Below, one piece after another: positions 8,416 to 25,698 of a stretch of 64,000 nucleotides of DNA. The stretch comes from an uncultured Syntrophomonadaceae bacterium (GTDB lineage: Bacteria; Bacillota; Dethiobacteria; DTU022), in NCBI GenBank assembly GCA_964506505.1, contig CAZDKY010000047.1, forward strand, positions 721 through 64,720, written 5' to 3'. The notes below the pieces were generated by a model. The model searched no databases and was not told the DNA's origin. It worked only from the letters and a program-made list of their open reading frames with translations. Both the position numbers and the translations under genes were made by a program. Each line of letters starts with the position of its first letter. Positions within the stretch are counted from its first letter, which is position 1.

Positions 8416-8495
8416 CCTGCCGTGACTGATAACAGCCCCGCAGCTCCTGTTCACATGTAAGATATTACAGGAATATATGAAGAGAAGTCAAACAG
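8416..8495. repeat. about 80-bp repeat element R, copy A
   Basis: About 85% identical to 12127..12206 in the same orientation. Contains the core ACATGTAAGATATTACA (inverted repeat TGTAA-N4-TTACA). Lies in the divergent promoter region between the ABC-F gene and the response regulator. Confidence 0.7.
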
Positions 8496-11745: not shown

Positions 11746-11842
11746 GAAACCTGTAATGTCGCTAATCAGCTAAATGATCAGCGCTGGAAGTAAACCGGCT
11801 GATGATTTGGCTTTAGCCCACAAGAAGGAAAAAGCCCCGCGC

Positions 11843-11875
11843 TCGAAAGCGCGGGGCTTTTCTTTTGTCAGTCCC
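11843..11875 (+). terminator. rho-independent terminator
   Basis: Stem GCCCCGCGC / GCGCGGGGC with loop TCGAAA, followed by TTTTCTTTT. Confidence 0.75.
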
Positions 11876-12082
11876 TCTCAATCATGGGCGTTAACCTGGC
11901 GATGGAAATCCGCCGAGAGCTTAACATTATGAAGGAATACTTCAAACAACAGGTAACCTGGATTTAAAAATACTGCTATAGTTTATGGCACAATAAAAAC
12001 AAACAAATTGGTGGTATACGCAGGAACCGATATGCCGGGTCATATCCGCTGGTTCGGCTCACCCTGGCTTTCCTCACTGCGG

Positions 12083-12135
12083 AAGTAACGGACAACCGAA
12101 GCGATATCGACGGGCACTTAGCCCATCCTGCCGTG
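12083..12135 (-). pseudogene. remnant of the 3' end of a paralog of the CrtI-like/Cys-tail gene at 13894..15747
   Basis: About 53 bp roughly 80% identical to 13911..13969, the last ~20 codons of that gene. The minus-strand reading ...HGRMG*VPVDIASVVRYF matches ...HGKMGGIPVDIASVVGYF but carries an in-frame stop. Directly abuts repeat copy B. Confidence 0.45.
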
Positions 12136-12206
12136 ATTGATAATAGCTCCACTGCTCCGGCTCACATGTAAGATATTACACGAATATATGAAGGGAATTC
12201 AAACGG
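12127..12206. repeat. about 80-bp repeat element R, copy B
   Basis: About 85% identical to 8416..8495 in the same orientation; lies just downstream of the stop of the CrtI-like gene at 12255. Confidence 0.7.
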
Positions 12207-12254: not shown

Positions 12255-13892
12255 TCAATTTCGAGGGTTTTTTGCTTTCTGCTTCTGCTGAAGAACCCGG
12301 TCGGCAGCCAATTTGCCGGTAAGAATGGCCACCGGCAGGCCGGAGGGACTGAAGGACCACTGGCCGGCCTTGCATACTTCTGGAATGGCGGTTTCGACGG
12401 ATTTAGTGATACGGGCAAAGCGGTTTTCCACCGGCAGCGGCTGTTCGGTGAAGGACCAGCCGGTTATCGCTCCCCCGGAACTGCCATTGATCCGCTCGAT
12501 GGACAGGGGAGTGGAAGAAAGTCTGCTGATCACTTTCTCTTCCAGGCCCGGGTAGAGTTTTTCGGTCAGAAGTCGGGCAATATATTGTTCGCTGAATTCC
12601 TTAAATTCCCCGTAGCGGCCTTCCGCATCAATTTCTCTGACCAGTTCGTAGTCGAAGAGAGTGCTGACGATCAGACCGCTCTGTCCGGCGGGGGCCAGGC
12701 TGCCGTCGCGGACGGCGGGGCAGGAGATCTCAAAAGTGTTCAGGTCAAAAAAGCGCTCAAGCCAGGCCCGCAGGTCCTGCCAGAGGGAAGCGGGCGGGCG
12801 GCCGTCAGCGTTCTCACCGGGCCGGCTTTCTTCCCGCAGCCGGTGGAGTCCTTCGCGGCTCGGGGTATAGAAAAGATGAGGGCCACCGGTGGCGGCAAAA
12901 TAATCGGGGGGCAGGTCCACGGTCAAATAGAGGCTGAAGATTGAATCGCCCCCTCTTCCCCTGTTAATGTTTGCCTTTTCTCCGGCAACGGTTTTTTGCA
13001 CGGCAGGATCATCAATCTGTTCTGTATCGATGGCCGAGTAAAGCTTTTTCAGATCGGCGGCCCAGATCAGCTGTCCGTATTGAAATCGATCTCCGGAGAC
13101 ACTGCGGATCAGCTTCTGCTGTAGATCGACTTCTTCAATTTCCGTTTCCAGGCGGATCTCGCCGCCGTGGTCGGCTATAAAGCGGGCCATTGTGTCGACC
13201 AGTGCTCCCGTGCCTCCTATCGGGTAGTTGTAATCAAGGTAGAGGCTGAAGTAACTCAGGGCGAAGAAAGCCGGAGTTTCAGTAAAGAAATGCTGGGCAA
13301 TCATGTCAGCAAGGGAACGGTTGGCGGTCAAGCGGCTGAGGTGCTCATAGACAGGGGTCTGCATCTTCATCGCTTTGCGGATATTATACTGATATTTCAG
13401 GAGCCAGGGCAGGACTGTTTTGAAAAGGTAGCGGCGGTCATTTTTCAGGTCCCGGAAGAGCGGGTTGTCAATGCCGTAGAGAACATCCATATAGCCGATT
13501 ACTTTTCTGATCTCGGCTATAATTTTTTTAATGTCATCCCCGTTATTTGGGAAGAGATCTTTTAGGAGGCGGCTGTAATCATCAAGACTTTCCGGCCCTT
13601 TCAGCTTGATAAAACGATCTTCAATGCCCAGGGATACGGGGCTTCTGACGAACTCGACTTCCAGGCCGAGATCTCGCAGCATCGGAAAGACAATGCCCGA
13701 GTTTTCGATGGCCCGAATTCCGCCGTCAAAGGTAAAACCGTCCACGGTAAACGAGTTAACCAAACCGCCGACTTTTAAGTTTTTCTCGCAGAGCAGCACC
13801 CGCTGGCCTGCCCGGCTGAGATAGGCGGCTGCAGTCAGACCGGCCATGCCGGCTCCGACGATTACAGTGTCGTAGCTAACATCCTTGCTCAT
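12255..13892 (-). CDS. phytoene-desaturase-family (CrtI-like, COG1233) NAD(P)/FAD-dependent oxidoreductase
   Basis: FAD-binding DTVIVGAGMAGLTAAAYL...GG fingerprint and amine-oxidase/CrtI-like length. I use the ATG at 13892 (MSKDVSYDTVIVGAG) with GGGAGG 7 nt upstream, rather than the track start at 13922. Confidence 0.8.
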   Translation of the reverse strand: MSKDVSYDTVIVGAGMAGLTAAAYLSRAGQRVLLCEKNLKVGGLVNSFTVDGFTFDGGIRAIENSGIVFPMLRDLGLEVEFVRSPVSLGIEDRFIKLKGPESLDDYSRLLKDLFPNNGDDIKKIIAEIRKVIGYMDVLYGIDNPLFRDLKNDRRYLFKTVLPWLLKYQYNIRKAMKMQTPVYEHLSRLTANRSLADMIAQHFFTETPAFFALSYFSLYLDYNYPIGGTGALVDTMARFIADHGGEIRLETEIEEVDLQQKLIRSVSGDRFQYGQLIWAADLKKLYSAIDTEQIDDPAVQKTVAGEKANINRGRGGDSIFSLYLTVDLPPDYFAATGGPHLFYTPSREGLHRLREESRPGENADGRPPASLWQDLRAWLERFFDLNTFEISCPAVRDGSLAPAGQSGLIVSTLFDYELVREIDAEGRYGEFKEFSEQYIARLLTEKLYPGLEEKVISRLSSTPLSIERINGSSGGAITGWSFTEQPLPVENRFARITKSVETAIPEVCKAGQWSFSPSGLPVAILTGKLAADRVLQQKQKAKNPRN

Positions 13893-13893
13893 A

Positions 13894-15747
13894 TCAGCGC
13901 CTCCCCGGCTTAAAGTAACCAACGACAGAAGCGATATCGACGGGTATTCCGCCCATCTTGCCGTGGATGCAGGACTGCATCGCTTCGAAAATCTGCTCTT
14001 CCTGCCCGCCTTCGGACCAGAAGCGTTCAGCTATTTTAGCCGCCCCGGCAAAATTGCCCACGGTTATCCTTCTCATGATTCCCCGCACGTCGAGCTCTAC
14101 GGCATCGCGACAGCCGGGTTGCTCGCAGTATTCGCAATGCCGTGCTTTGAGCATGATCTCCCGCTTTTCAGGACTGAATTCACGGTAGAGATCTTCCTGG
14201 CGGTATGGTTTATCCACCAGGCGGACATAATTTTTCATCCCCCGCCGGTAGTTAAAGGGCTCGAGGCCTCGTTTTTTGAGAACTGCGTTAGCAGCGGAAA
14301 GACCGGAGACGGTAACCGCCGGGGTACCGGTACCCATGACCGTCGATTCACCGCAGCAAAAGAAGTTCTCCCACCCGGTGCGGGTGTGCAGGCGGTTGAG
14401 CAGATGCTGGCCCAGCATCTGTTTCGGGCCGGCCACGGCACCTCCCTTTTTCATTGTATAGCGCTCGATGGTGGCCGGGGTGGCTATTTCGGCATAGCGG
14501 ACCTTTTTGCTGAGGCCGGGAAATTTCTTTTCCAGAATGGCCAAAAGGCGTTCCTTTTCCTGCTCTTTCTGTCCGTCATATTTTTCTTTGTTGCTGCGGT
14601 CCCATTTGCCAAAATTAGGACCCATAGCCACCAGAACATGTCTGTCTTCGGGGCAGAGAGTTTGATCGTCAATGCTGAAGATGAAAATTGTTACCTCGCC
14701 TTCATCGATCTGGTCAGGGTTGCCGATTAGCATTTCGATGGGCAGGGTGCGGGCCGGGATAGCATCCCTTTCTACCAGGGCATAAAGGACCACGCTGGGA
14801 TAGGTGGGTACCTGCTTTTCCGCCCATTCTCTGAGACCAGGCTGCAGGTGGGTTTCGGGAATCAGCTTGCCGTAGAGGTTCCAGACTGTACCCGAATAGA
14901 TTATCTCACTGGCAAAGAGTTCTTCTCCGTCAACCAGTTTCACACCGGCAGGACGGCTGTCGTCAAAGAGGATTTCGGCTACCTCTTTTTTCATGAGCAT
15001 GGTACCGCTGTTTTCTTCGATCACCTTCTCCAGCTTGCCCGGTAAAAACACTGTCGAGCCGGCCGGATAGAAACTTCCCCCCACATGGTTTTCGATAAAC
15101 ATGATCGCCGCCAGGATAGCCGGGGTCTCCAGGGTGGTAGTGTAACAGTAGGTGGAAGTGAGCTTGTCAAAGAAGTTGAAAAGCTGCGGGTCGCTGAAGT
15201 ATTTTTCCAGCAGGCTGCGGGCGCTTTTATTCATGTAGCCCAGGAAGCGGGCGAAGGAAAGGGGGTGTTTCAGCAGGGCCGGCAGTGATTTAAACTTGTC
15301 TGTTTCGTCGGGGGCGGCATAGACTGGATTTTCGACCATGACGTGGCGGTACATTTTCTCAAGATCGGCGTAGAACCTTCTGATGTTTCCCTTTTCGGAA
15401 GGGAAAATTTTACCCAGTTCTTCGGCAAAATGCCTTACATTGGGCCAGAATTTTATTTTCTTGCCCCGGTAATTGATGCAGTAGAGCTGATCATGCCGAA
15501 TCATATTTATAGGTTCTTCCAGGCAATTGAAAACAAAGCGGTTAGGGTTGAAACCTTTTTCGCCAAAGCCGAAAAGCATGGCCGAACCCTGGTCGAAGAT
15601 TGTGTCACCCCGCTTGAATATACCGCAGGAACCGCCGGGGTTGTAGTTCTTATCAATTACGGCCACCTTCACCCCTCTTTTGGCCAACAGAGCCGCTGCG
15701 GTCAACCCGGAGAGACCAGCCCCGATTACGATAACATCGTACTGCAT
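13894..15747 (-). CDS. phytoene-desaturase-family oxidoreductase with a C-terminal Cys-rich (dihydroprymidine-dehydrogenase/GltD-like Fe-S) tail
   Basis: YDVIVIGAGLSGLTAAALL FAD motif. A C-terminal ~90 aa with CEYCEQPGC...C resembles the helical 4Fe-4S domain at the N-terminus of GltD/DPD. Start moved to the ATG at 15747 (RBS AAAGGGTG). The stop overlaps the start of the paralog at 13892. Confidence 0.75.
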   Translation of the reverse strand: MQYDVIVIGAGLSGLTAAALLAKRGVKVAVIDKNYNPGGSCGIFKRGDTIFDQGSAMLFGFGEKGFNPNRFVFNCLEEPINMIRHDQLYCINYRGKKIKFWPNVRHFAEELGKIFPSEKGNIRRFYADLEKMYRHVMVENPVYAAPDETDKFKSLPALLKHPLSFARFLGYMNKSARSLLEKYFSDPQLFNFFDKLTSTYCYTTTLETPAILAAIMFIENHVGGSFYPAGSTVFLPGKLEKVIEENSGTMLMKKEVAEILFDDSRPAGVKLVDGEELFASEIIYSGTVWNLYGKLIPETHLQPGLREWAEKQVPTYPSVVLYALVERDAIPARTLPIEMLIGNPDQIDEGEVTIFIFSIDDQTLCPEDRHVLVAMGPNFGKWDRSNKEKYDGQKEQEKERLLAILEKKFPGLSKKVRYAEIATPATIERYTMKKGGAVAGPKQMLGQHLLNRLHTRTGWENFFCCGESTVMGTGTPAVTVSGLSAANAVLKKRGLEPFNYRRGMKNYVRLVDKPYRQEDLYREFSPEKREIMLKARHCEYCEQPGCRDAVELDVRGIMRRITVGNFAGAAKIAERFWSEGGQEEQIFEAMQSCIHGKMGGIPVDIASVVGYFKPGRR

Positions 15748-16160
15748 TTTCTTCACCCTTTCTTCCGCATCGCCGTCCGGCAACTTTAAAAAAGATTAAT
15801 CAGGTTTCTTACAGCTCCGGGAGTTGGCGATCTGCGGAGGCAGGCTGTCCGAATATATATTGTTTATATTATATGTTATTTTCACTGTGACAACCACTCT
15901 AAATTTGCAGATATTTATAATTAAGGGCGGCGGGTGTTAGCCCAGAATTTTTTTACCCTCTTCTCATTGAATTAATATAATCCGCTTACAGTTGAAAATA
16001 TTTTTATTTTACATTAAGATTTCGTAACAGCCGCAAATCTTCAAGCAAAGAGAATGATTTTGGAGTAGTTTTGGAGGATAATATAATGAACTAATAACCG
16101 GGGCAGTGGGAAAAGTATCTGCGGAGTAAGAAACCTGCAGCAGTGGCCAGTCTGCAGAAA

Positions 16161-17282
16161 TTAGAGCAGATCCTCCACCATTCTGGCGATGCTCAGGCAG
16201 GAGGTCAGACCGGGCGATTCAATACCAATCAGGTTGATCAGGCCCGGCAGGCCGCGGCTGCTTTCTTCGGCGATCACAAAATCACGGAAAGGCTGGCCGG
16301 GCCCGGAAAGTTTACCCCTGATTCCGGCCATATCAGGTTCCAGGTCGTTCAGCTCGACAAAGGGCAGGAACGATTTGACGGCATCATAGAACTCAACAGC
16401 CCGGGCCGGATCAACCAGGTAGTCGATTTCATCAACGTAGACAGTGTTGGGTCCAAGGATTAGGCGCCCGTCAAGCATCTTGGTTACATGGATGCCAAGG
16501 CCGGTCAGCTCATGAAGGGGCGGCGGGTAAATCAGGCGCTCTACCAGGGAAGCCTTGGCCGGGGGCAGGCTGAAATATTCGCCCTTGCAGAAGTACTGGC
16601 GGTAACCGGCTTCAATGATATCGATACCGGCGGCTGCCGCCAGACTGCCAGCCTGCAGCCCGGCGCAGTTAACCACGTTTAGACATTCGAGTGTGTCCGG
16701 GCTGCCGTCCGGATTCTTATAGTTAACCCGGTAACCATCGGTGCATCGTTCGATACCCGTAACGCAGTGGCAGTAAGCAGGCATAACCCCATTCTGCAGG
16801 GCATCTTCCTCCAGGCGGGCCATTAAAGTGTGGCTGTCGATTATGCCGGTGGAGGGCGAAAAAAGGGCGCAGTCTGCTTTGATATGCGGTTCCAGACGGG
16901 TCACCATTTTACGGTCCATCATTTCCAGGTTTTCGACCCCGTTGGCGGAAGCCTGCTCAAGAAGGCTGTCAAGTGAAGCGCATTCTTCGTCTGTATTGGC
17001 GACGATTAGTTTGCCGCGTTGGTTGTAAGGAACATTTCGATCATCACAGTAGGCATAGAGCAGCTCCCGTCCCTCCAAGCAAAGACGGGCTTTGAGGGTA
17101 CCTGAAGGATAGTAGATGCCGGCGTGGATTACCTCGCTGTTGCGGCTCGATGTTTCTCGGCCAAAGTGTTCGCGCTTCTCCATGAGAACTAAAGTCCGGG
17201 CATTTTGTTGGGCGGAAAGCCTGGCGGCGACAGCCAGGCCGACTACTCCGGCCCCGATAATTACGGTGTCAACTTTATCCAT
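16161..17282 (-). CDS. FAD-dependent oxidoreductase of the L-2-hydroxyglutarate oxidase (LhgO)/glycerol-3-phosphate dehydrogenase family
   Basis: N-terminus DTVIIGAGVVGLAVAARL...SSRNSEVIHAGIYY is closely similar to the LhgO/YgaF family; 373 aa. Confidence 0.8.
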   Translation of the reverse strand: MDKVDTVIIGAGVVGLAVAARLSAQQNARTLVLMEKREHFGRETSSRNSEVIHAGIYYPSGTLKARLCLEGRELLYAYCDDRNVPYNQRGKLIVANTDEECASLDSLLEQASANGVENLEMMDRKMVTRLEPHIKADCALFSPSTGIIDSHTLMARLEEDALQNGVMPAYCHCVTGIERCTDGYRVNYKNPDGSPDTLECLNVVNCAGLQAGSLAAAAGIDIIEAGYRQYFCKGEYFSLPPAKASLVERLIYPPPLHELTGLGIHVTKMLDGRLILGPNTVYVDEIDYLVDPARAVEFYDAVKSFLPFVELNDLEPDMAGIRGKLSGPGQPFRDFVIAEESSRGLPGLINLIGIESPGLTSCLSIARMVEDLL

Positions 17283-17438: not shown

Positions 17439-20400
17439 TTAGCGGCAGGATAGGATGGCTTCACGCAGACGTGCTATTTTTTCTTTAGATCCTGCATCAT
17501 CAGGAGCCGCTGCAGCCAGGTAAAACTTAACCTTTGGTTCGGTGCCCGATGGGCGTACTGCAAACCAGGTGCTGTCGGCCAGGGTATAGTGAAGAACCGG
17601 AGAGCGCGGCAGGGTAAGAGCAAATTCTTCCCCTGTCTGCAGGTTCCAGCCTTTTCCTTGTGCATAATCCCTTTTGAAAACCAGCTGCTGCCCGGCAAAT
17701 TGGGGCGGCAGATCTTTGAAGACGTTTACGTGCCGATCGGCCTGGGAGATATCCTCCAGTTCCACGGTGAGAAGTTCGTCACGGTGGTAACCGTGGCGGC
17801 GGTGCAGCTCGTCAAGCAGATCGAAGAGGGTCTGACCCTGCTCCTTGTAATAGGCAACCATCTCGGCGATGAGCATAGAGGCGATAACCGCGTCCTTGTC
17901 GCGAACAAAGGTGCCGGTGAGATAACCGTATGATTCCTCGTATCCAAAGACGAAACTGCCAGTTCCCTTCTCTTCAAACTCCTTCATTTTATCCCCAATG
18001 AATTTGAAACCGGTCAGGGTTTCAACAACGCGCAGACCATAGTGGGCCGCTACTTTGCGGCCAAGATGCCCGGTAACGATAGTTGTCACAAGGACAGGAT
18101 CAGGCGGCATGGCTTTTCTGTCGGTAAGGCGGCTGCAGATATATTCCAGGAGCAGGGCACCCACCTGGTTGCCGTTAAGCATCCGGAGGCAGTCAGCAGC
18201 ATCGCGGGCGGCGACACCGACACGGTCACAGTCGGGGTCGGTAGCCAGCACCAGTTCAGCACCTTCCTGTTCCGCAAGGTCCAGGGCCATTTTTAGGGCA
18301 GCGGGATCTTCGGGGTTGGGGACGCTGACGGTGCTGAATTCACTGTCAGGAACCATCTGCTCTTTCACCGGGATATAGTCAACATGGGGAGCGCGGTTGA
18401 GCAAGTCCGGGATGTACACCGAACCGGTGCCATGCAGGGGAGTAAAAACTGTTTTGACCACTGCCCGCGGTTTGCTCATGGAAAGGGCAGACACTTTTTC
18501 TATATAGTGCCGGTCGAGATCCGGATCAACTTCCTGCAGTAACCCACGGCTGACTGCTTCACCACGGGAAAGCTGTTTGACGTCAGCAAAGATATCCACT
18601 TTCTTGATGGCGGCGATTACTTCGTCCACCAGAGGGCTGACTGCCTGGCCGCCGTCGGGACCATAGACCTTGTAGCCGTTGTACTGCCGCGGGTTGTGGC
18701 TGGCAGTGATCACGATGCCGGCAGCGCAGCCCAGCTCACGGGTGGCGAAGGAAAGGGCCGGAGTTGGCCTGATATCGCTGAACAGGAAGGCCCGGATACC
18801 GTTGGCAGCGAGAACCAGGGCCGCCGTTTCGGCGTAAAAAGGTGAATAACGGCGTGTGTCGCAGGCAATGGCCACGGCTGGTAGATCTTCAATGGCAAGA
18901 TCGGCGGCGGAAGCGCCGTCATCTGATTGCGACCGGACCCTGCGGTTTATATAGTCGGCCAGGCCCTGGGTAGCGCGGCCGATGACATAGCGGTTGATCC
19001 GGTTCAGGCCGGGGCCAATGATCCCACGCATGCCGCCAGTGCCAAAAACAAGTTCACTGCCGAAATGGCGCTCGATGGACTCGGGATCTTCCTGCATGGC
19101 CTGTAGTTCTTTTTTCATTTCCGGATCAAGGCCGGGCTGACCGAGCCAGCTGCGGAAGTGTCGCCGGGCCGGTGATTCTTCTTGTGACTGCGAGTTGGCA
19201 TGTGCCGGTGCGGATGAATCAATTCGTCCGTAATCGTCCTCGTAACGCTCAATATCGTCTTCCCCCAGGTAATCGCCGGTCTGCACTTCGATGAGGGCCA
19301 TCTCCTCTTCGCCACGGTTTTCAAGGCGGTGGCGCGCCTCGACAGGTATAAAGGCTCTTTCTCCCACTTTTAATGTAAACTGGCGATCGTCTATGGTGAC
19401 CAGTGCTTCGCCGCGGATAACCACCCAGTTCTCGGCCCGCCGGTGGTGGCTCTGCAGGCTGAGGCGTGAACCGGGGCTTACGTTGATCCTTTTAACCTGG
19501 TATCCGGGTCCGGTTTCCAGGGAGGTATAGCTACCCCAGGGTCGGTAGACGGTGCGGTGTTCGCGGGCTTCTACAGCACTGCTTTCTTTGAGGCGATCGA
19601 CAATTTTCTTCACATCCTGGCTGCAACTGCGGTCGCAGACCAGGAGAGCATCGTGAGTATCGACGATTACCAGATCCTTCAGGCCGATGGCTCCTGTAAG
19701 ACGGGACGGGGAAATAATCAGGCTATTTTCGGTATCCACGGATATTACCTGCCCTCGGAAGGCGTTCCCGCGGTTGTCTCGTCCGGAAAGCTGGTAGTAG
19801 GCTTCCCAGCTGCCAAGGTCACTCCAGGTAATATCCGCAGGGATAACGGTTACCTCGTCGGAACGCTCAAGGATCCCGTAATCTATGGATATTTTTTGCA
19901 GGTTGTGATAGGCTTCGTCCAGCATCTCTTTCCTGCTGTAATCGATCCGGACCAGGGTGTCGTAGATCTGAGGTAATAGTTTTCTGTACTGTTCCATAAG
20001 GGTGTCAACCCGGAAGATAAACATACCGCTGTTCCATAGAAAACGGGGATCTTTCAGGTAGGCAATGGCTTTTTCCAGATCCGGTTTTTCAACAAATTTT
20101 TCAACGCGGAAGGTTTTGTGATCAAGTTTTTCACCGCAGCAGATATAGCCGTAGCCGGTTTCCGGGTAGGTGGGACGAATGCCAAAAGTAACCAGGCCGT
20201 AGTTTTCGGCAGCCCGGGCACCGTCTTCCAGGAGAACAGCAAACTGGTCCCGGTCTGGAATGAGGTGATCGGAGGGTAACACTGCCATCACTGCATCGGG
20301 CTCCGCTTCTTTCTGCAGAAAGCGGGCGGCCAGACCGATAGCCGGGGCTGTGTTACGGGCTTCCGGTTCCTCGAGCAGGCGGATTTTTGTCAGGCCAGCC

Positions 20401-20702
20401 AGCTTCAGGCGGCGCTTGATTTCGCCCGCCTGGTCGCGGTGGGTGACTATGAGTATATTTTCTTCCGCCACCACGGTGAGGACACGGCTGATCGTTTCAC
20501 CAAGAAGAGTCACTTCACTAACCGGGTCTGAGGGAGAAGATTCTCCTTCCTCCGGATGGTTTTGAGTTCTGTTATTCTTTATCATACTTTGATCTGAAAC
20601 CGGCAGTGGAAGAAACTGCTTGGGATAAAGTTCACGGCTCAGCGGCCAGAGCCTGGTACCGCTTCCGCCGGCCAGGATTACAGTGTACAGCATAGAAATC
20701 AC
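17439..20702 (-). CDS. fusion protein: mannose-1-phosphate guanylyltransferase (ManC) + cupin mannose-6-phosphate isomerase domain + phosphomannomutase/phosphoglucomutase (1087 aa)
   Basis: N-terminus VILAGGSGTRLWPLS (nucleotidyltransferase). Middle cupin domain (VKRINVSPGSRLSLQSHHRRAENWVVIRGEALV). C-terminal half with the phospho-sugar mutase active-site loop GIVITASHNP and a PgcA/ManB-like fold. One uninterrupted ORF. Confidence 0.85.
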   Translation of the reverse strand: MISMLYTVILAGGSGTRLWPLSRELYPKQFLPLPVSDQSMIKNNRTQNHPEEGESSPSDPVSEVTLLGETISRVLTVVAEENILIVTHRDQAGEIKRRLKLAGLTKIRLLEEPEARNTAPAIGLAARFLQKEAEPDAVMAVLPSDHLIPDRDQFAVLLEDGARAAENYGLVTFGIRPTYPETGYGYICCGEKLDHKTFRVEKFVEKPDLEKAIAYLKDPRFLWNSGMFIFRVDTLMEQYRKLLPQIYDTLVRIDYSRKEMLDEAYHNLQKISIDYGILERSDEVTVIPADITWSDLGSWEAYYQLSGRDNRGNAFRGQVISVDTENSLIISPSRLTGAIGLKDLVIVDTHDALLVCDRSCSQDVKKIVDRLKESSAVEAREHRTVYRPWGSYTSLETGPGYQVKRINVSPGSRLSLQSHHRRAENWVVIRGEALVTIDDRQFTLKVGERAFIPVEARHRLENRGEEEMALIEVQTGDYLGEDDIERYEDDYGRIDSSAPAHANSQSQEESPARRHFRSWLGQPGLDPEMKKELQAMQEDPESIERHFGSELVFGTGGMRGIIGPGLNRINRYVIGRATQGLADYINRRVRSQSDDGASAADLAIEDLPAVAIACDTRRYSPFYAETAALVLAANGIRAFLFSDIRPTPALSFATRELGCAAGIVITASHNPRQYNGYKVYGPDGGQAVSPLVDEVIAAIKKVDIFADVKQLSRGEAVSRGLLQEVDPDLDRHYIEKVSALSMSKPRAVVKTVFTPLHGTGSVYIPDLLNRAPHVDYIPVKEQMVPDSEFSTVSVPNPEDPAALKMALDLAEQEGAELVLATDPDCDRVGVAARDAADCLRMLNGNQVGALLLEYICSRLTDRKAMPPDPVLVTTIVTGHLGRKVAAHYGLRVVETLTGFKFIGDKMKEFEEKGTGSFVFGYEESYGYLTGTFVRDKDAVIASMLIAEMVAYYKEQGQTLFDLLDELHRRHGYHRDELLTVELEDISQADRHVNVFKDLPPQFAGQQLVFKRDYAQGKGWNLQTGEEFALTLPRSPVLHYTLADSTWFAVRPSGTEPKVKFYLAAAAPDDAGSKEKIARLREAILSCR

Positions 20703-20968
20703 TCCACTTCACACACTATATTTTCTACCTTATTTTATAACTGCTCAGGCATGGACTGCTGTGTCAGGAGGGCTGAAAGAGCCGTCCTTCTGTGTGCCAG
20801 AGGAATGAATGGACGGTTCCCCCCTCTCTCCCGGCGCGCTTTCTGCCCGTTAAAGATATTTCTACTGATTTGTTTGCTCCAGGCTACCCCGGGGTTGAGG
20901 GCAGGTGAAAAAGGCTTAATAACACTATTCACATGATAAAAGTGTGTCAATTCCTCCGCCCCCCTGTG

Positions 20969-23278
20969 TTACAGGTTAATTTGCTGCTGCTGCTGGGAAA
21001 GGCCCTGGTGAGCCACCAGGTGCATGCGCTGCAGGGCCAGCAACAACGAAACTACTGATTCGCCGCCCTGGTTCCGGTTGATGCCGCCGGGATGGAGGCC
21101 GTCGTAGCAGGCCCCGGTGGAAAAATTATAGAGAGGCTGACGAACGTCGTTGCTGCCGAAGAACCAGTTGAAGGCCCATTCCATGTGCCGAAGCCAGTTG
21201 CTGTCGCCGGTGAGCACGTAGGCCTGGTAACAGGCATCGATGAGGGCAGCAGCGTCGACCGGCTGCTGGTCAAAGCGAGCCTTGTTTCCACCCCTCTTGT
21301 ACCACCCGTCATTGCCGATCAGGGAAAGATGGCCATTCTCTTCGCTGGTGTTGACATTGATCAGCCAATGCAGGCTCTGCAGACCAGTTTCAAACATTTT
21401 TTCTTCGTCCAGCATGCCGCCGGCCACCAGAAGGGCCTGTGAGATACGGGCGTTGTCATAAGCAAGAATGTCTTCGCACCAGTGCCAATCGTCGTCGGCA
21501 TTTTTTTGATGAAGATGGTAAATTTTTTCGGCCAGTTCTTTCATGATCTGGCGGACGCGGGCATCACCACCAAAGCGGCGCAGGTAGTAGTTGGCACCGA
21601 TCACAGCAAAAGCCCAGGCTCGCGGCGAAGTAAAGCGAAGCGGGGTATCGATCAGGTCTTTGAAAAGCCTGGTGGCCAGGCCGAGAATATCGTCACCCGG
21701 CGGATGGGCAATGGTATAACCGAGAGCCCAGAGGGTGCGTCCATGGCTGTCCTGGGAGCCACTTTCTTCGAGCCATCGGCGGTCGAAACTCATGAAATTG
21801 CGCATTCGCTTGCGATTTTCATTGTAAGCGTGGTGCAGAAAACTGATATATTTTTTCAGCATCCTGATCACCGGTTCGTCCTTGAAAAGACGCCAGTTCA
21901 TCACAGCAACGATCAGGGCGCGGGCGTTGTCGTCTGTGCAATAGCCATGGGTCCGATCGGGAACAGCGTAAATGGCGTGCTGGAATAGACCGGTGTCGTC
22001 AGTCATGTCGCGCAGGTGTCCCAGGTTCGGTTCTGGCAGGACTGCCCGTTCGGTAACATCGGCACTTTGCAGGGAAGGCACAAACATTTTACTGTAGCTG
22101 AAACGAGCTTGCTCGAAGGCAGTGGCATAGCTGCGAGCAACCTCTTTCCACACCATCTGCCTTCCCTGCTGGTAGGCTTTCTTACGCATGCGGTTACGGC
22201 GGCCTTCGTTACTGAGCAAGTCGATAATTTCATCGGCCATCGCCCCGCTGTCCTTGAAGGGAACGAGACTGCCGCATCCATCGGCTAACAGTTCCTCAGC
22301 GTAGATATAGGGGGAGGAGACAATCGCTTTGCCGCAGGCCAGGGCATAAGCCAGTGTGCCTGAGGTAATCTGCTCGCGATTCAAATAGGGTGTGATATAA
22401 ACATCGGTGGCCACAAGGAACTGGACCAGGCGCTCCAGGGAAACATACTGGTTATAAAAGGCAACGTTTTCTTCAAGACCCATGTCACGGACCATCTTCT
22501 GCAGGCGAAGACGATATTCTTCGCCGTAACGGCGTTTTACCTCGGGGTGGGTGGCACCGAGAATAATATAGAGGGCATCGGGATGCACCTGAACCACTTT
22601 TTCCATCGCCTCAACGGCATACTCCAGGCCCTTGCTCGGACTGAGCAGACCAAAGGTTAGCAGGAGCTTACGCCCCTCGGCCTGGAACTGGTCCTTATAA
22701 TAGGAAGAGTCCAGAAAGGGAACATCGGGTGCCCCGTGGGGAATAAGCAGGATCTTATCGTCAGGCACACGGTAAACCCGCCGGAGAATATCCAGGGCAG
22801 CCTGGGCCATGACCACTACAGAGACGGATTGCTCGCAAACGCGCATCAGCGTTTGCCGCTGGCCTGGAGTAGGATCCTCGAGAACAGTATGCAGGGTGGT
22901 TATGGTCGGTTTTCTAAGGCCGGACAGCAGATAGGTAATGTAGCTTCCATCTTCACCGCCAAATATGCCGTACTCATGCTGGATGGAGACTGCATCTACT
23001 GGAGAGTGGTTGATAAAGTCGGCCGCCCGCTGGTAGTCGGCACGATGCTGGTCGCGAATATGAAAGGTCACTGTGCGGTCGTAATTGAAATTATCGTTGA
23101 TGCTGTTGAGAGCTATTACCTCAAAATTTTTCTGCTCGCTGCTGTCGGCATTTTCGCCGTAGAGCTCTTTCATGCTGTTGAGCAAGTCCCCACAGAAGGT
23201 GGCAATACCGCACTGGCGCGGTGGATAGGTTGAAATAAAAGAGAGCTTGACCGGACGGAGAATTTTACCTGGATGCAT
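20969..23278 (-). CDS. GT4 glycosyltransferase fused to a C-terminal ~370-aa glycosidase-like (six-hairpin / amylo-alpha-1,6-glucosidase-like) domain
   Basis: N-terminal 400 aa is a Glycos_transf_1/GT4 fold (STYPPRQCGIATF ... EGFGL-like region). The C-terminus (DDTGLF...HGYCTDDNARAL...WHWCEDILAYDNARI) looks like an (alpha/alpha)6 glycoside hydrolase; its family is uncertain. Start set at the ATG at 23278 (MHPGKIL; AAGAGG 8 nt upstream). Confidence 0.75.
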   Translation of the reverse strand: MHPGKILRPVKLSFISTYPPRQCGIATFCGDLLNSMKELYGENADSSEQKNFEVIALNSINDNFNYDRTVTFHIRDQHRADYQRAADFINHSPVDAVSIQHEYGIFGGEDGSYITYLLSGLRKPTITTLHTVLEDPTPGQRQTLMRVCEQSVSVVVMAQAALDILRRVYRVPDDKILLIPHGAPDVPFLDSSYYKDQFQAEGRKLLLTFGLLSPSKGLEYAVEAMEKVVQVHPDALYIILGATHPEVKRRYGEEYRLRLQKMVRDMGLEENVAFYNQYVSLERLVQFLVATDVYITPYLNREQITSGTLAYALACGKAIVSSPYIYAEELLADGCGSLVPFKDSGAMADEIIDLLSNEGRRNRMRKKAYQQGRQMVWKEVARSYATAFEQARFSYSKMFVPSLQSADVTERAVLPEPNLGHLRDMTDDTGLFQHAIYAVPDRTHGYCTDDNARALIVAVMNWRLFKDEPVIRMLKKYISFLHHAYNENRKRMRNFMSFDRRWLEESGSQDSHGRTLWALGYTIAHPPGDDILGLATRLFKDLIDTPLRFTSPRAWAFAVIGANYYLRRFGGDARVRQIMKELAEKIYHLHQKNADDDWHWCEDILAYDNARISQALLVAGGMLDEEKMFETGLQSLHWLINVNTSEENGHLSLIGNDGWYKRGGNKARFDQQPVDAAALIDACYQAYVLTGDSNWLRHMEWAFNWFFGSNDVRQPLYNFSTGACYDGLHPGGINRNQGGESVVSLLLALQRMHLVAHQGLSQQQQQINL

Positions 23279-23562
23279 AAAAAACACCTCTTTTTTCAGA
23301 AGTCGGTTATCAGAATACCGTAAGGCCGGGATTTAAAATACCGGCAACTCGGAACAGAATAACTTTTTCTAGAAACTGTTGATCCGGGAAATTTGATCAG
23401 CTTAACATATAGATCGTTTAAATAAGTATAATTCCACTTAAGCATTATTCAAGAGGTTTTCAGAAGTTTTTAAGGTTTATCGCCTGGTGTGCTCAATCTT
23501 TCTGCATAATCGGCTAAAGTCTTCCCAGGTTATATAAATGGTGTAGCAGGCAGGGGTTCTTC

Positions 23563-24693
23563 TCAGGCCCGGCTGTGCAATATTTTTTTATATACTTCGA
23601 TATAGCGATCCACCATCAGGTCGGTGGTAAAGTTTTCTTCCACGTGGCGGCGGCAGTCACGGCGATCGATGCGGTCAAAGCGAGCCAGGGCTACACCGGC
23701 TTCGTCAAGGCTGTCAACCAGGAAGCCGGTCTGGCCATCTTTGATCAGCTCGGGCATAGAGCCCCTGTTAAAAGCAATTACCGGGGTGCCGCAGGCCATT
23801 GCTTCTACTACGCTCAGTCCGAAGGGTTCATCAAAATTTATCAGGTGCAGGAGGGCACCGGCGCGCCCGAGGACCTCTCCTTTTTCAGCCGGTCCTACGG
23901 GGCCGATGTAGTAAACCTGCTCACCATCCAGGTAAGGCTTGACATAGCGGTCGAAGTAGTTCTGATCCTGGATAATGCCGGCAATGACCAAAGGCAGTCC
24001 GGCCTGCTTGGCCAGGCGAATTGATTCATAAGCGCCCTTGTCATGGTGAATACGGCCAAAAAAGAGCAGATAGCCTGGCGCCGGGATCTGCGAGTATTTT
24101 TCCCGGGGGACCTCCGGCGGCCTGAATTCCGGTCTTTTTTCATACTGCTCTTTTTTACGTTTTGGCAGATTAACTTCTGCCGGGTTGCCCTGCGGATCGG
24201 CAAAGAAGGGATATTCTTCAACCGGTATACCGTGATGGACGGTAGCTGCATAATCAAGAGCAGGGTGGCGATCTGCTTCACTGATGGCCACGTAATGGAC
24301 ACGGCCGTTGTAGCGCCGGAAGACCGGAAGGATCCGCGGCGAAGAAAAGCCGTGGATAGTTGTTAAAACCGGGGTATCCACAAGCCCTGAATAGCTGAGG
24401 GGCAGGAAATCGAAATTATTATGAATCAGGTCATAGCAAGAAGCCTCCTCGAAGACGGAGGCAATGTGCAGGCATTCCCACACTTTTGGGTCGAGTTCCG
24501 GGTCTTCCGACCAGGGACGCGGCGCTACCGCCTTCAGGTAGCCGGCGGTAATGGAATCGGCAGTGGCATAGAGTGTAACTTCTATTCCACGCCGGATTAA
24601 ACCTTCGGTAAGCACACTGACAACCCACTCCCAGGGTCCATAATGCCGGGGTGGGGTGCGCCAGGATATGGGTGACAGCATGGCAATTTTCAT
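23563..24693 (-). CDS. GT4-family glycosyltransferase
   Basis: GT-B fold with the C-terminal EPFGLSVVEAMACGTPVIA motif typical of retaining GT4 enzymes; 376 aa. Confidence 0.85.
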   Translation of the reverse strand: MKIAMLSPISWRTPPRHYGPWEWVVSVLTEGLIRRGIEVTLYATADSITAGYLKAVAPRPWSEDPELDPKVWECLHIASVFEEASCYDLIHNNFDFLPLSYSGLVDTPVLTTIHGFSSPRILPVFRRYNGRVHYVAISEADRHPALDYAATVHHGIPVEEYPFFADPQGNPAEVNLPKRKKEQYEKRPEFRPPEVPREKYSQIPAPGYLLFFGRIHHDKGAYESIRLAKQAGLPLVIAGIIQDQNYFDRYVKPYLDGEQVYYIGPVGPAEKGEVLGRAGALLHLINFDEPFGLSVVEAMACGTPVIAFNRGSMPELIKDGQTGFLVDSLDEAGVALARFDRIDRRDCRRHVEENFTTDLMVDRYIEVYKKILHSRA

Positions 24694-24723
24694 CTCACTG
24701 GAGAAGACAAAAACCTCCTCTCT

Positions 24724-25698
24724 CTAAGTAAGACAGAAACCTTCATCCTCGGAATCGTTGCAGTTCAAAAGATAACTGACCAGGTCTTTCAATTTAGCTG
24801 AAGCCAGGCAGACGCTGGAATCGGCTGCCCCGTAATACATGATCAATTCATCGTTGATATGGTCGTAAATTGTCCCTGTGGGGAAGGTTACACCGGGGAC
24901 GTCACCGACCCGTTCGTACGGTTCGTGGGGGCCAAAAACCCACTGGTCGCAGCGTTTCCTGATTTTCCACGGTTCATCCAGGTCGAGCAGGGCCAGACCG
25001 ACCCGGTAGAGGCTCCCGGAAGCAGTATCACGCACACCGTGATAGATGATCAGCCACCCTTCGTCGGTTTCAATGGGCGGCGGCCCAAGGCCGACGCGAG
25101 TGGTGTCCCACCAGCCGGGGCGGACAGGCAGCAATATTTTATGTTCACCCCAGTGGATCATGTCGGGCGAATTGGCAATCCAGATGTGGGCTTCACCGCG
25201 GATAATGGGCCTGTGTATGAGCATGTAGCGGCGGTTGATCTTGCGCGGGAAAAGCGAGGCATCCTTGTCCTCGGGAGGGAGCATGGCCCCGCGGCGCTTG
25301 AAGGTAACCAGATCACTGCTCAGGGCCAGGGAAACAACCGGCCCGTCCTTGGAAAAGGAAACATAGGTAACGGCATACTTTCCCAGGTCTTCAAGCCAGA
25401 CGATGCGGGGATCTTCAATGCCCCACCGTTCTTCGTCGTAATTGGAGTTGGGCATGAGCGCGGGCTGATTGTCGATCTGCCAGTTTGTTTTGCCGTCCTC
25501 ACTGCGGGCAAAGGTGAAATGGGAAAAACCCCGCATGTCCTCGACGCGGACCAGCAGGTGGACCTTGCCTTCATGCTTGATGGCAGCCGGGTTAAAGGTA
25601 GCATTGACCGGGTAAGGCCAGCAGTCCGGAAAAAGGATCGGATTTCCCTCAAATCTTTCAAATATTCCGGTTGGCCTGTAGTGGTTATGATAGATCAT
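24724..25698 (-). CDS. GH130-family glycoside phosphorylase/hydrolase (beta-mannoside phosphorylase-like, former DUF377)
   Basis: Five-bladed beta-propeller signatures (FNPAAIKHEGKVHLLVRVED, GIEDPRIV, GWLIIYHG). Ends in TAG, and the reading frame continues into the downstream GT4 gene. Confidence 0.8.
   Translation of the reverse strand: MIYHNHYRPTGIFERFEGNPILFPDCWPYPVNATFNPAAIKHEGKVHLLVRVEDMRGFSHFTFARSEDGKTNWQIDNQPALMPNSNYDEERWGIEDPRIVWLEDLGKYAVTYVSFSKDGPVVSLALSSDLVTFKRRGAMLPPEDKDASLFPRKINRRYMLIHRPIIRGEAHIWIANSPDMIHWGEHKILLPVRPGWWDTTRVGLGPPPIETDEGWLIIYHGVRDTASGSLYRVGLALLDLDEPWKIRKRCDQWVFGPHEPYERVGDVPGVTFPTGTIYDHINDELIMYYGAADSSVCLASAKLKDLVSYLLNCNDSEDEGFCLT

Follow-up and report, generated by a model that had tools for sequence, protein, structure and literature searches.

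Within a 64,000 nucleotide stretch of DNA from an uncultured Syntrophomonadaceae bacterium (assembly GCA_964506505.1, contig CAZDKY010000047.1; the whole stretch is called the window below) we analyzed a gene, here named A, together with its downstream neighbor, B. Judged by sequence, the body of A belongs to the carotenoid desaturase/isomerase/saturase superfamily and is of the CrtISO/CrtH type, and its C-terminal ~90 residues look to be a cut-down version of the Fe-S domain of the glutamate synthase small subunit GltD, dihydropyrimidine dehydrogenase (DPD) and NfnB, which we predict to hold one [4Fe-4S] cluster and not two. Our preferred reading, to which we assign a rough probability of 0.45, is that A is a flavoenzyme whose flavin adenine dinucleotide (FAD) is fed with electrons through this tail and acts reductively on an isoprenoid or polyene lipid. 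What appears to be new is the Fe-S architecture within the known CrtI superfamily, in a family that looks widespread and highly conserved; in literature searches (anaerobic prolycopene isomerase/4Fe-4S, phytoene desaturase–glutamate synthase fusion) we found no publication on an Amino_oxidase plus Fer4_20 architecture. To our knowledge the characterized CrtI, CrtISO and retinol saturase (RetSat) enzymes pass electrons to O2 or quinones or use an externally reduced flavin, and none has a built-in Fe-S cluster.

The Fe-S tail, the flavoprotein body and their relatives

The first-pass annotation of the window had likened a C-terminal extension of A, missing from B, to the helical Fe-S domain of GltD and DPD. 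The extension (residues ~505–617, containing HCEYCEQPGCRD) is indeed confined to A, and its homology to that domain could be traced through its relatives. The tail of A itself gave a weak match to the Pfam family Fer4_20 (residues 527–574, E-value 0.032, 14.5 bits against a cut-off of 25.8), and a single-sequence search of the PDB with the tail identified nothing relevant; Fer4_20 was detected in 17 of 18 representative close homologs of A (best E-value 2.3e-9), and a profile of the A-family tails aligned to NfnB (4ylf_B) and pig DPD (1gt8). This profile alignment placed the CxxCxxxxC sequence of A on the first three Cys of NfnB and DPD, and Cys593 on the last Cys of the 'CESRC' of NfnB. The tail also shares with these proteins its helical character, a 'D(I/V)(P/R)GxxRR...GNxxGA' helix and a final Cys followed by PVxI. 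An AlphaFold2 (AF2) model predicts an all-alpha tail, with helices at residues 526–536, 545–549, 554–562, 566–578, 583–591, 594–597 and 605–610 (predicted local distance difference test (pLDDT) scores of 82–94).

The presence of four cluster-ligating Cys in the tail had been set beforehand as a test of the Fe-S proposal, and four candidates were found: Cys538, Cys541, Cys546 and Cys593 are invariant in an alignment of 120 A homologs, in which parts of an RGxMRRxxVGNxxGA motif are invariant as well. When A, NfnB and the long fusion proteins described below were aligned together, eight Cys columns stood out, of which A keeps Cys 1, 2, 3 and 8 and lacks Cys 4 ('CP', with a two-residue deletion), Cys 5 and Cys 6; the pattern of eight Cys (or seven Cys plus Gln/Glu) for two [4Fe-4S] clusters was not found in the tail of A. 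If ligation crosses over as it usually does in two-cluster ferredoxin-like motifs, Cys 1–3 and Cys 8 would make up one complete [4Fe-4S] site, and the likeness to GltD and DPD does not extend to two clusters, the four Cys of A leaving room for one. The retained cluster presumably corresponds to nFeS1 of DPD (Cys79, 82, 87 and 140), which we take to be distal to the GltD-type flavin and hence on the output side. In GltD, DPD and NfnB the domain serves as an electron wire beside a flavin, and we propose the same role for the tail of A, which differs from them in keeping four of the eight Cys, in standing at the C-terminus of a different flavoprotein and in having no Pyr_redox_2 domain after it.

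The body of A matches the whole of the Pfam model Amino_oxidase (residues 12–490, E-value 1.5e-21, model positions 1–443 of 443) and also NAD_binding_8 (3.5e-13; N-terminal motif VIVIGAGLSGL). Its best NCBIfam match is to the carotenoid isomerase model carot_isom (TIGR02730; 251.1 bits, E-value 2e-74, residues 3–489 on model positions 1–488), with further matches to CrtD (166 bits) and crtI_fam (126 bits); the curated cut-offs, 586.9, 550 and 238 bits respectively, are not reached. For the AF2 model of A, built from an alignment of 120 sequences (pLDDT 84.5, predicted template modeling score 0.88), the best solved structures in Foldseek were a gamma-carotenoid desaturase (4rep, E-value 5e-25) and CrtI (4dgk, 9e-20); two uncharacterized archaeal oxidoreductases were also among the best matches, and amine oxidases ranked lower. 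Both the full-length carot_isom match and the top structure place the body with carotenoid enzymes and not with unrelated amine oxidases. Like CrtISO, CrtH and RetSat, A has the amine-oxidase FAD fold, colinear over ~490 residues, with an N-terminal GxGxxG and a C-terminal GxxTxxGxGxP-type flavin motif, and, as for CrtISO and RetSat, reduced-flavin-dependent catalysis would be expected. It is unlike them in scoring 251 bits against a family cut-off of 587, in its additional, putative [4Fe-4S] domain, and in occurring in non-phototrophic anaerobes with no phytoene synthase found nearby. The body holds further Cys that are invariant in the 120 homologs, C41 (15625..15627), C201 (15145..15147) and C365 (14653..14655), and a nearly invariant pair, C464–C465 (14353..14358).

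Homologs of A number more than 1,500, the best 120 being 60–86% identical over the full length including the tail, and a scan of one genome per species identified ~340 carriers. Identity to A is 60–65% across Bacillota, Chloroflexota, Thermotogota, Bacteroidota, Spirochaetota and Coriobacteriia; the carriers include Acetobacterium, Trichococcus, Parasporobacterium, Anaerobium, Syntrophomonas and many Clostridia within the Bacillota, and Anaerolineae, Dehalococcoidia, Thermotogota, Bacteroidales, Spirochaetes and Coriobacteriia outside them. Acetobacterium, Trichococcus and Parasporobacterium offer cultured, partly genetically tractable carriers. These lineages are anaerobic, and O2 and often quinones are unavailable to them as electron acceptors.

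An exhaustive search of 1.84 billion representatives identified sister-clade relatives with 36–46% identity over residues 2–573 of A, which come in two forms. The shorter proteins (~625–660 residues) have a full eight-Cys Fer4_20 domain, and the longer ones (~960–980 residues) have, after a full Fer4_20 (75–95 bits), the whole GltD-like Pyr_redox_2 domain for NAD(P)H, seen in P0149, P0152, P0172 and P0181; A ends at residue 617 with no such domain after its tail. The ~960 residue triple fusions (e.g., P0149, P0152, P0172 and P0352; loci L084–L092) occur in Asgard archaea (Loki-, Thor-, Hel- and Promethearchaeota), Zixibacteria and Desulfobacterota. Their genomic contexts were uninformative; at one locus, L088, a tandem pair of ~960 residue fusion genes is followed by a ferredoxin-like gene.

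Based on its domain composition, the ~960 residue form would provide a self-contained path from NAD(P)H through a flavin and two clusters to the CrtISO-like flavin; most simply, the A family would have shed the NAD(P)H module together with the proximal cluster and retained the cluster that communicates with the CrtISO-like flavin. The fact that sister proteins carry a whole GltD-like NAD(P)H module supports an Fe-S route into the CrtISO-like flavin of A, so that of the earlier proposal of an Fe-S or ferredoxin-coupled reductase it is the Fe-S electron feed that has gained strong comparative support, and not the choice among saturase, isomerase and desaturase. The A family and its sister clades form a graded series, from flavoprotein plus one cluster (the A family) to flavoprotein plus two clusters to flavoprotein plus two clusters and a GltD-like NAD(P)H module, which shows how CrtISO-type chemistry could be wired to anaerobic electron carriers.

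Proposed direction of electron flow and chemistry of A

In the mechanism we favor, A would be a soluble or membrane-peripheral protein with a [4Fe-4S] cluster on Cys538, Cys541, Cys546 and Cys593. Reduction of the cluster would come from a one-electron donor of low potential (e.g., ferredoxin or flavodoxin); the cluster would in turn reduce the FAD, whose reduced form would work on a conjugated C=C within an isoprenoid or polyene lipid, the net chemistry being a saturation as in RetSat. The domain homology, the pattern of Cys, the conservation of the operon and the series of fusions are observed, and from them we infer the cofactor content, the direction of electron flow, the substrate and the physiological role; net saturation appears the most likely outcome, with CrtISO-like isomerization, the flavin being merely kept reduced, a close second. 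We prefer net reduction for three reasons: the fused, stoichiometric NAD(P)H module of the sister clade is difficult to account for in any other way; RetSat, a member of the CrtISO clade, shows that the CrtISO scaffold can saturate; and electrons from a desaturation would have to run uphill to ferredoxin or NAD(P)+. The usual task of a GltD-type module is to pass electrons from NAD(P)H to an acceptor.

The best family match of A being, over its full length, the carotenoid isomerase model, A could instead be a reduced-flavin cis-trans isomerase, an analogue of CrtISO/CrtH whose reaction is redox-neutral and whose cluster only keeps the FAD reduced. Plant CRTISO needs reduced FAD for its non-redox reaction, and an Fe-S input would be a simple anaerobic solution to this need. 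Santana-Molina et al. moreover described a partial 'CrtH' pathway in some Firmicutes (PMC9907078). We nevertheless consider an isomerase unlikely: A scores far under the equivalog cut-off of that model, the two-cluster NAD(P)H module of the sister proteins looks like a stoichiometric supply and not like occasional activation, and no carotenoid backbone genes were found near A.

A second alternative reverses the electron flow, so that A, with or without B, would be an O2-independent oxidative enzyme, either a CrtN/CrtI-like desaturase or an allylic hydroxylase like CtmAB, with the cluster as electron exit. The acceptor in place of O2 or quinone would then be ferredoxin, rubredoxin or another carrier, and rubredoxin and rubrerythrin genes do occur in some loci; the closest structures to the fold of A are desaturases (4rep and 4dgk); and allylic hydroxylation would supply the OH group for the glycosyltransferase and CrtO acyltransferase encoded downstream in relatives (see below). 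The adjacent A and B also recall the heterodimeric, O2-independent limonene dehydrogenase CtmAB and sterol delta24-desaturase (delta24-SD), which likewise are encoded by two adjacent, distant COG1233 genes (~25% identity) and carry out anoxic terpenoid chemistry (PMC11061730). However, the defining covalent-FMN (flavin mononucleotide) motif of both subunits of these enzymes, G-F-[LR]-x-[NS]-[TL]-H-A (PMC11061730), was absent from A and B in a regular-expression search, and their membership of that group was rejected on this ground; CtmAB and delta24-SD are, unlike A, without Fe-S, and B is dispensable in close relatives of A. As a desaturation that handed its electrons to ferredoxin, with its low potential, or in the long fusions to NAD(P)+, would be thermodynamically uphill, and GltD-type modules usually work in the direction from NAD(P)H to an acceptor, we place little weight on an oxidative A, about as little as on the isomerase.

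Two further leads were set aside. IsmB and the gut 'Fe-S cluster flavoenzyme superfamily' were rejected as kin of A, being of an unrelated type that we take to be the Old-Yellow-Enzyme/BaiCD type. The 'yellow affinity substance' of C. thermocellum was dropped, as it is a polyketide aryl polyene and not a carotenoid (PMC11839114).

Operon partners and the substrate of A

For a survey of genomic context we clustered the open reading frames (ORFs) from 81 loci and annotated the recurrent clusters; combinations of partner genes were counted in the 54 loci in which 4.5 kb or more of sequence follows A. In 40 of the 81 loci the gene directly after A is a B ortholog (45–56% identity), and the order in relatives is A-B-GT2-CrtO, where GT2 is a family 2 glycosyltransferase with best matches to HpnB, CruG and HpnI and CrtO is a carotenoid-type acyltransferase of PF18927 (5e-33). 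GT2 and CrtO are present in 24 of the 54 loci (18 with B and six without it); B alone accompanies A in seven, as in the window, and none of the three in 23. B, an ancient tail-less partner of A, would probably either catalyze another reaction of this lipid or associate with A in a complex, and in many relatives the product would be glycosylated by the HpnB/CruG-like GT2 and then acylated by the CrtO-family enzyme, to give a membrane glycolipid tied to protection against light and oxidative stress.

Several other genes recur among the 81 loci. A UvdE–DUF1722 fusion was found near A in 14 of them, a Rieske protein closest to the sterol demethylase SdmA in 13, and TetR and heliorhodopsin (Pfam E-value 5e-101) in 10 each; fusions of rubrerythrin and rubredoxin, glutathione peroxidase, pirin and flavodoxin are further recurrent neighbors. 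In eight Anaerolineaceae loci (L012, L015, L017, L029, L031, L035, L041 and L043) the heliorhodopsin gene is upstream of A on the opposite strand, adjoining A in six and separated from it by the C3 gene in L041 and L043, and in the Dehalococcoidia locus L022 it is directly downstream of A on the same strand. C3 is an unassigned multi-pass membrane protein of ~268 residues found next to A in 30 of the 81 loci (e.g., L028:530-1336 and L007:12066-12857), with no Pfam or NCBIfam match even at E-values up to 10; an impression that it is TspO-like had no support from hidden Markov models at that threshold, and it could be an unrecognized component of the pathway, e.g., a transporter, cyclase or synthase. 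The context thus links the A family to heliorhodopsin, UvdE and peroxide-defense genes. Bulzu et al. found heliorhodopsins flanked by carotenoid and UvdE/photolyase genes and proposed a photo-oxidative stress response (PMC8612252), and exogenous xanthophylls have been put forward as heliorhodopsin ligands in a 2025 preprint (10.1101/2025.11.27.691015).

The relatives of A share two CrtI paralogs, a GT2 and a PF18927 CrtO, grouped in a single operon, with the staphyloxanthin-type CrtN/CrtP-CrtQ-CrtO and the CruC/CruD or CruG pathways to carotenoid glycoside esters. They differ in the Fe-S tail and in that no CrtM, CrtB or HpnCDE was found, and the window holds A and B only; since the organisms are anaerobes, O2-dependent CrtP chemistry is also implausible for the carriers of A. 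No squalene/phytoene synthase (SQS_PSY-like) was among the recurrent neighbors of A, and a crude motif test for the signature YCxxVAGxVG identified none in the window or in 83 related loci.

The lack of a backbone synthase nearby and the many loci in which A stands alone would suit a substrate that is not an isoprenoid, i.e., an unsaturated fatty acid, a polyketide polyene or an amine, in which case CrtO and GT2 would belong to a different glycolipid pathway. The amine-oxidase fold also houses fatty-acid isomerases (P. acnes PAI), which adds to this possibility, as does the report by Santana-Molina et al. of anaerobic Clostridia that have a CrtN-like protein, of unclear function, without CrtM or CrtP (PMC9907078). 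However, the best sequence and structure matches of A are all to carotenoid enzymes, the partner families (CrtO, the HpnB/CruG/HpnI-like GT2 and the SdmA-like Rieske protein) are enzymes of terpenoid lipids, and genes related to light and UV typically accompany carotenoid clusters (PMC8612252); we regard a non-isoprenoid substrate as slightly less likely than either of the two alternatives above.

A number of observations weigh against reductive, Fe-S-fed lipid chemistry in A. The Fer4_20 score of A itself is below the Pfam gathering threshold, and the assignment of the retained cluster to nFeS1 of DPD is tentative. A saturase alone makes no OH or COOH group for a glycosyltransferase to use. 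A has no partner gene in the 23 loci counted above, and GT2, CrtO, heliorhodopsin and UvdE are all absent from the whole 64-kb window, where B is the sole partner; B is itself deleted in the two closest relatives (see below) and so dispensable. Finally, no phytoene, dehydrosqualene or squalene synthase was found by the motif test in the window or the 83 loci.

A wider reading, which we offer as a long shot, is that many non-phototrophic anaerobes, and Asgard archaea with the fused NAD(P)H form, have an O2-independent, Fe-S-coupled pathway for carotenoid-type lipids without a canonical backbone synthase. Its substrate would be environmental carotenoids or xanthophylls that are scavenged, or the product of an unrecognized synthase, and saturation or isomerization by A and B would be followed by glycosylation and acylation. 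If so, the resulting membrane glycolipid could give photo-oxidative protection or be the carotenoid antenna that has been proposed for heliorhodopsins, and the pathway would explain the 'orphan CrtN' of anaerobic Clostridia. A in any case bears on a question raised in the literature, namely the role of CrtN/CrtH-like proteins in strict anaerobes without CrtM and CrtB (PMC9907078).

Layout of A and B and the loss of B in relatives

The features of the window are collected in Table 1. A starts from an ATG (MQYDVIVIGAG) and ends with a stop codon at 13894..13896. As had been noted in the first pass, A and B are two adjoining proteins of the CrtI/amine-oxidase fold: each matches Amino_oxidase and NAD_binding_8 and has an N-terminal Rossmann motif, and the best NCBIfam match of B is to crtI_fam (84 bits against a cut-off of 238). 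The ATGA overlap of start and stop codons that had been reported between them is absent, as the junction reads cgcTGAtATGagc, with a spacer of 1 nt; translational coupling of A and B is probable. With promoter-like sites upstream of A and the terminator-like hairpin at 11829..11862, A and B look like a transcription unit of their own.

Table 1. Features of genes A and B and of the adjoining DNA in the window
Feature	Position	Strand	Basis or remark
Gene A, CrtISO/CrtH-like FAD protein with C-terminal putative Fe-S tail	13894..15747	-	ORF, 617 residues
Flavoprotein body of A, residues 1–500, GxGxxG at residues 9–14	14248..15747	-	Pfam, NCBIfam, Foldseek
Tail of A, residues 505–617: linker and predicted all-helical truncated Fer4_20 domain	13897..14235	-	
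CxxCxxxxC, Cys538/Cys541/Cys546, Cys 1–3 of the eight-Cys Fer4_20 pattern	14110..14136	-	Invariant in 120 homologs
Cys593, distal fourth putative ligand, Cys 8 of the Fer4_20 pattern	13969..13971	-	Invariant in 120 homologs
A/B junction TGAtATG	13890..13896	-	Sequence read
Gene B, tail-less CrtI-superfamily paralog	12255..13892	-	ORF, 545 residues, N-terminus MSKDVSYD
Promoter-like sites in the 413-nt gap upstream of A	15852..15893	-	Consensus scan alone
43-nt element, repeated at 8451..8493	12162..12204	.	Copies 93% identical
Remnant copy of the last 19 codons of A, with in-frame stop	12079..12135	-	tblastn, blastn
Intrinsic-terminator-like hairpin past B and the remnant, strong and bidirectional (15-bp stem)	11829..11862	.	

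A pseudogene remnant had been annotated at 12083..12135 as a third copy of the 3' end. The remnant is real and has an in-frame stop (HGRMG*VPVDIASVVRYFR compared to the C-terminal HGKMGGIPVDIASVVGYFK of A); what it copies is the 3' end of A itself (tblastn, 74% amino acid identity; blastn, 83% over 53 nt to 13913..13965) rather than a third paralog, and it can be aligned as well with the end of the A gene of the relative L004. B and the 43-nt element thus lie between two copies of the 3' end of A; one copy of the 43-nt element is just after B and the other is upstream of an ABC-F gene. This lineage is losing B, and the 43-nt repeat and the A-3' repeat bracket the segments that are missing in relatives: in L004 (86%) A is joined directly to the downstream region without B, which looks like a deletion between the A-3' repeats, and in L005 (83%) B is reduced to its first ~29 and last ~29 codons, which looks like a deletion between the 43-nt repeats combined with an internal deletion of B. 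By this comparison the window would have the fuller layout, with two direct-repeat pairs. As the L004 and L005 deletions map to direct repeats, we read the remnant as a footprint of rearrangement, and local duplication of the family, which the remnant had been thought to indicate, is rejected: A and B are 24% identical and the pair is kept across phyla, so that they are ancient partners and not recent duplicates.

Upstream of A, at 16161..17282 (- strand), is a gene for an FAD oxidoreductase resembling L-2-hydroxyglutarate oxidase (LhgO) or type-2 glycerol-3-phosphate oxidase, whose position is kept in L005 alone (83% identity). The genes at 17439..25698 (- strand) include a 1087 residue fusion of mannose-1-phosphate guanylyltransferase/isomerase and phosphomannomutase, with two GT4 glycosyltransferases (one of 772 residues) and a GH130 mannoside phosphorylase upstream of it, and are a cluster of the mannoside or compatible-solute type. 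Proteins identical to A, B and the oxidase are deposited under two metagenome-assembled genome bins, 'Firmicutes bacterium ML8_F2' and 'delta proteobacterium ML8_D', so the contig was either binned twice or is shared.

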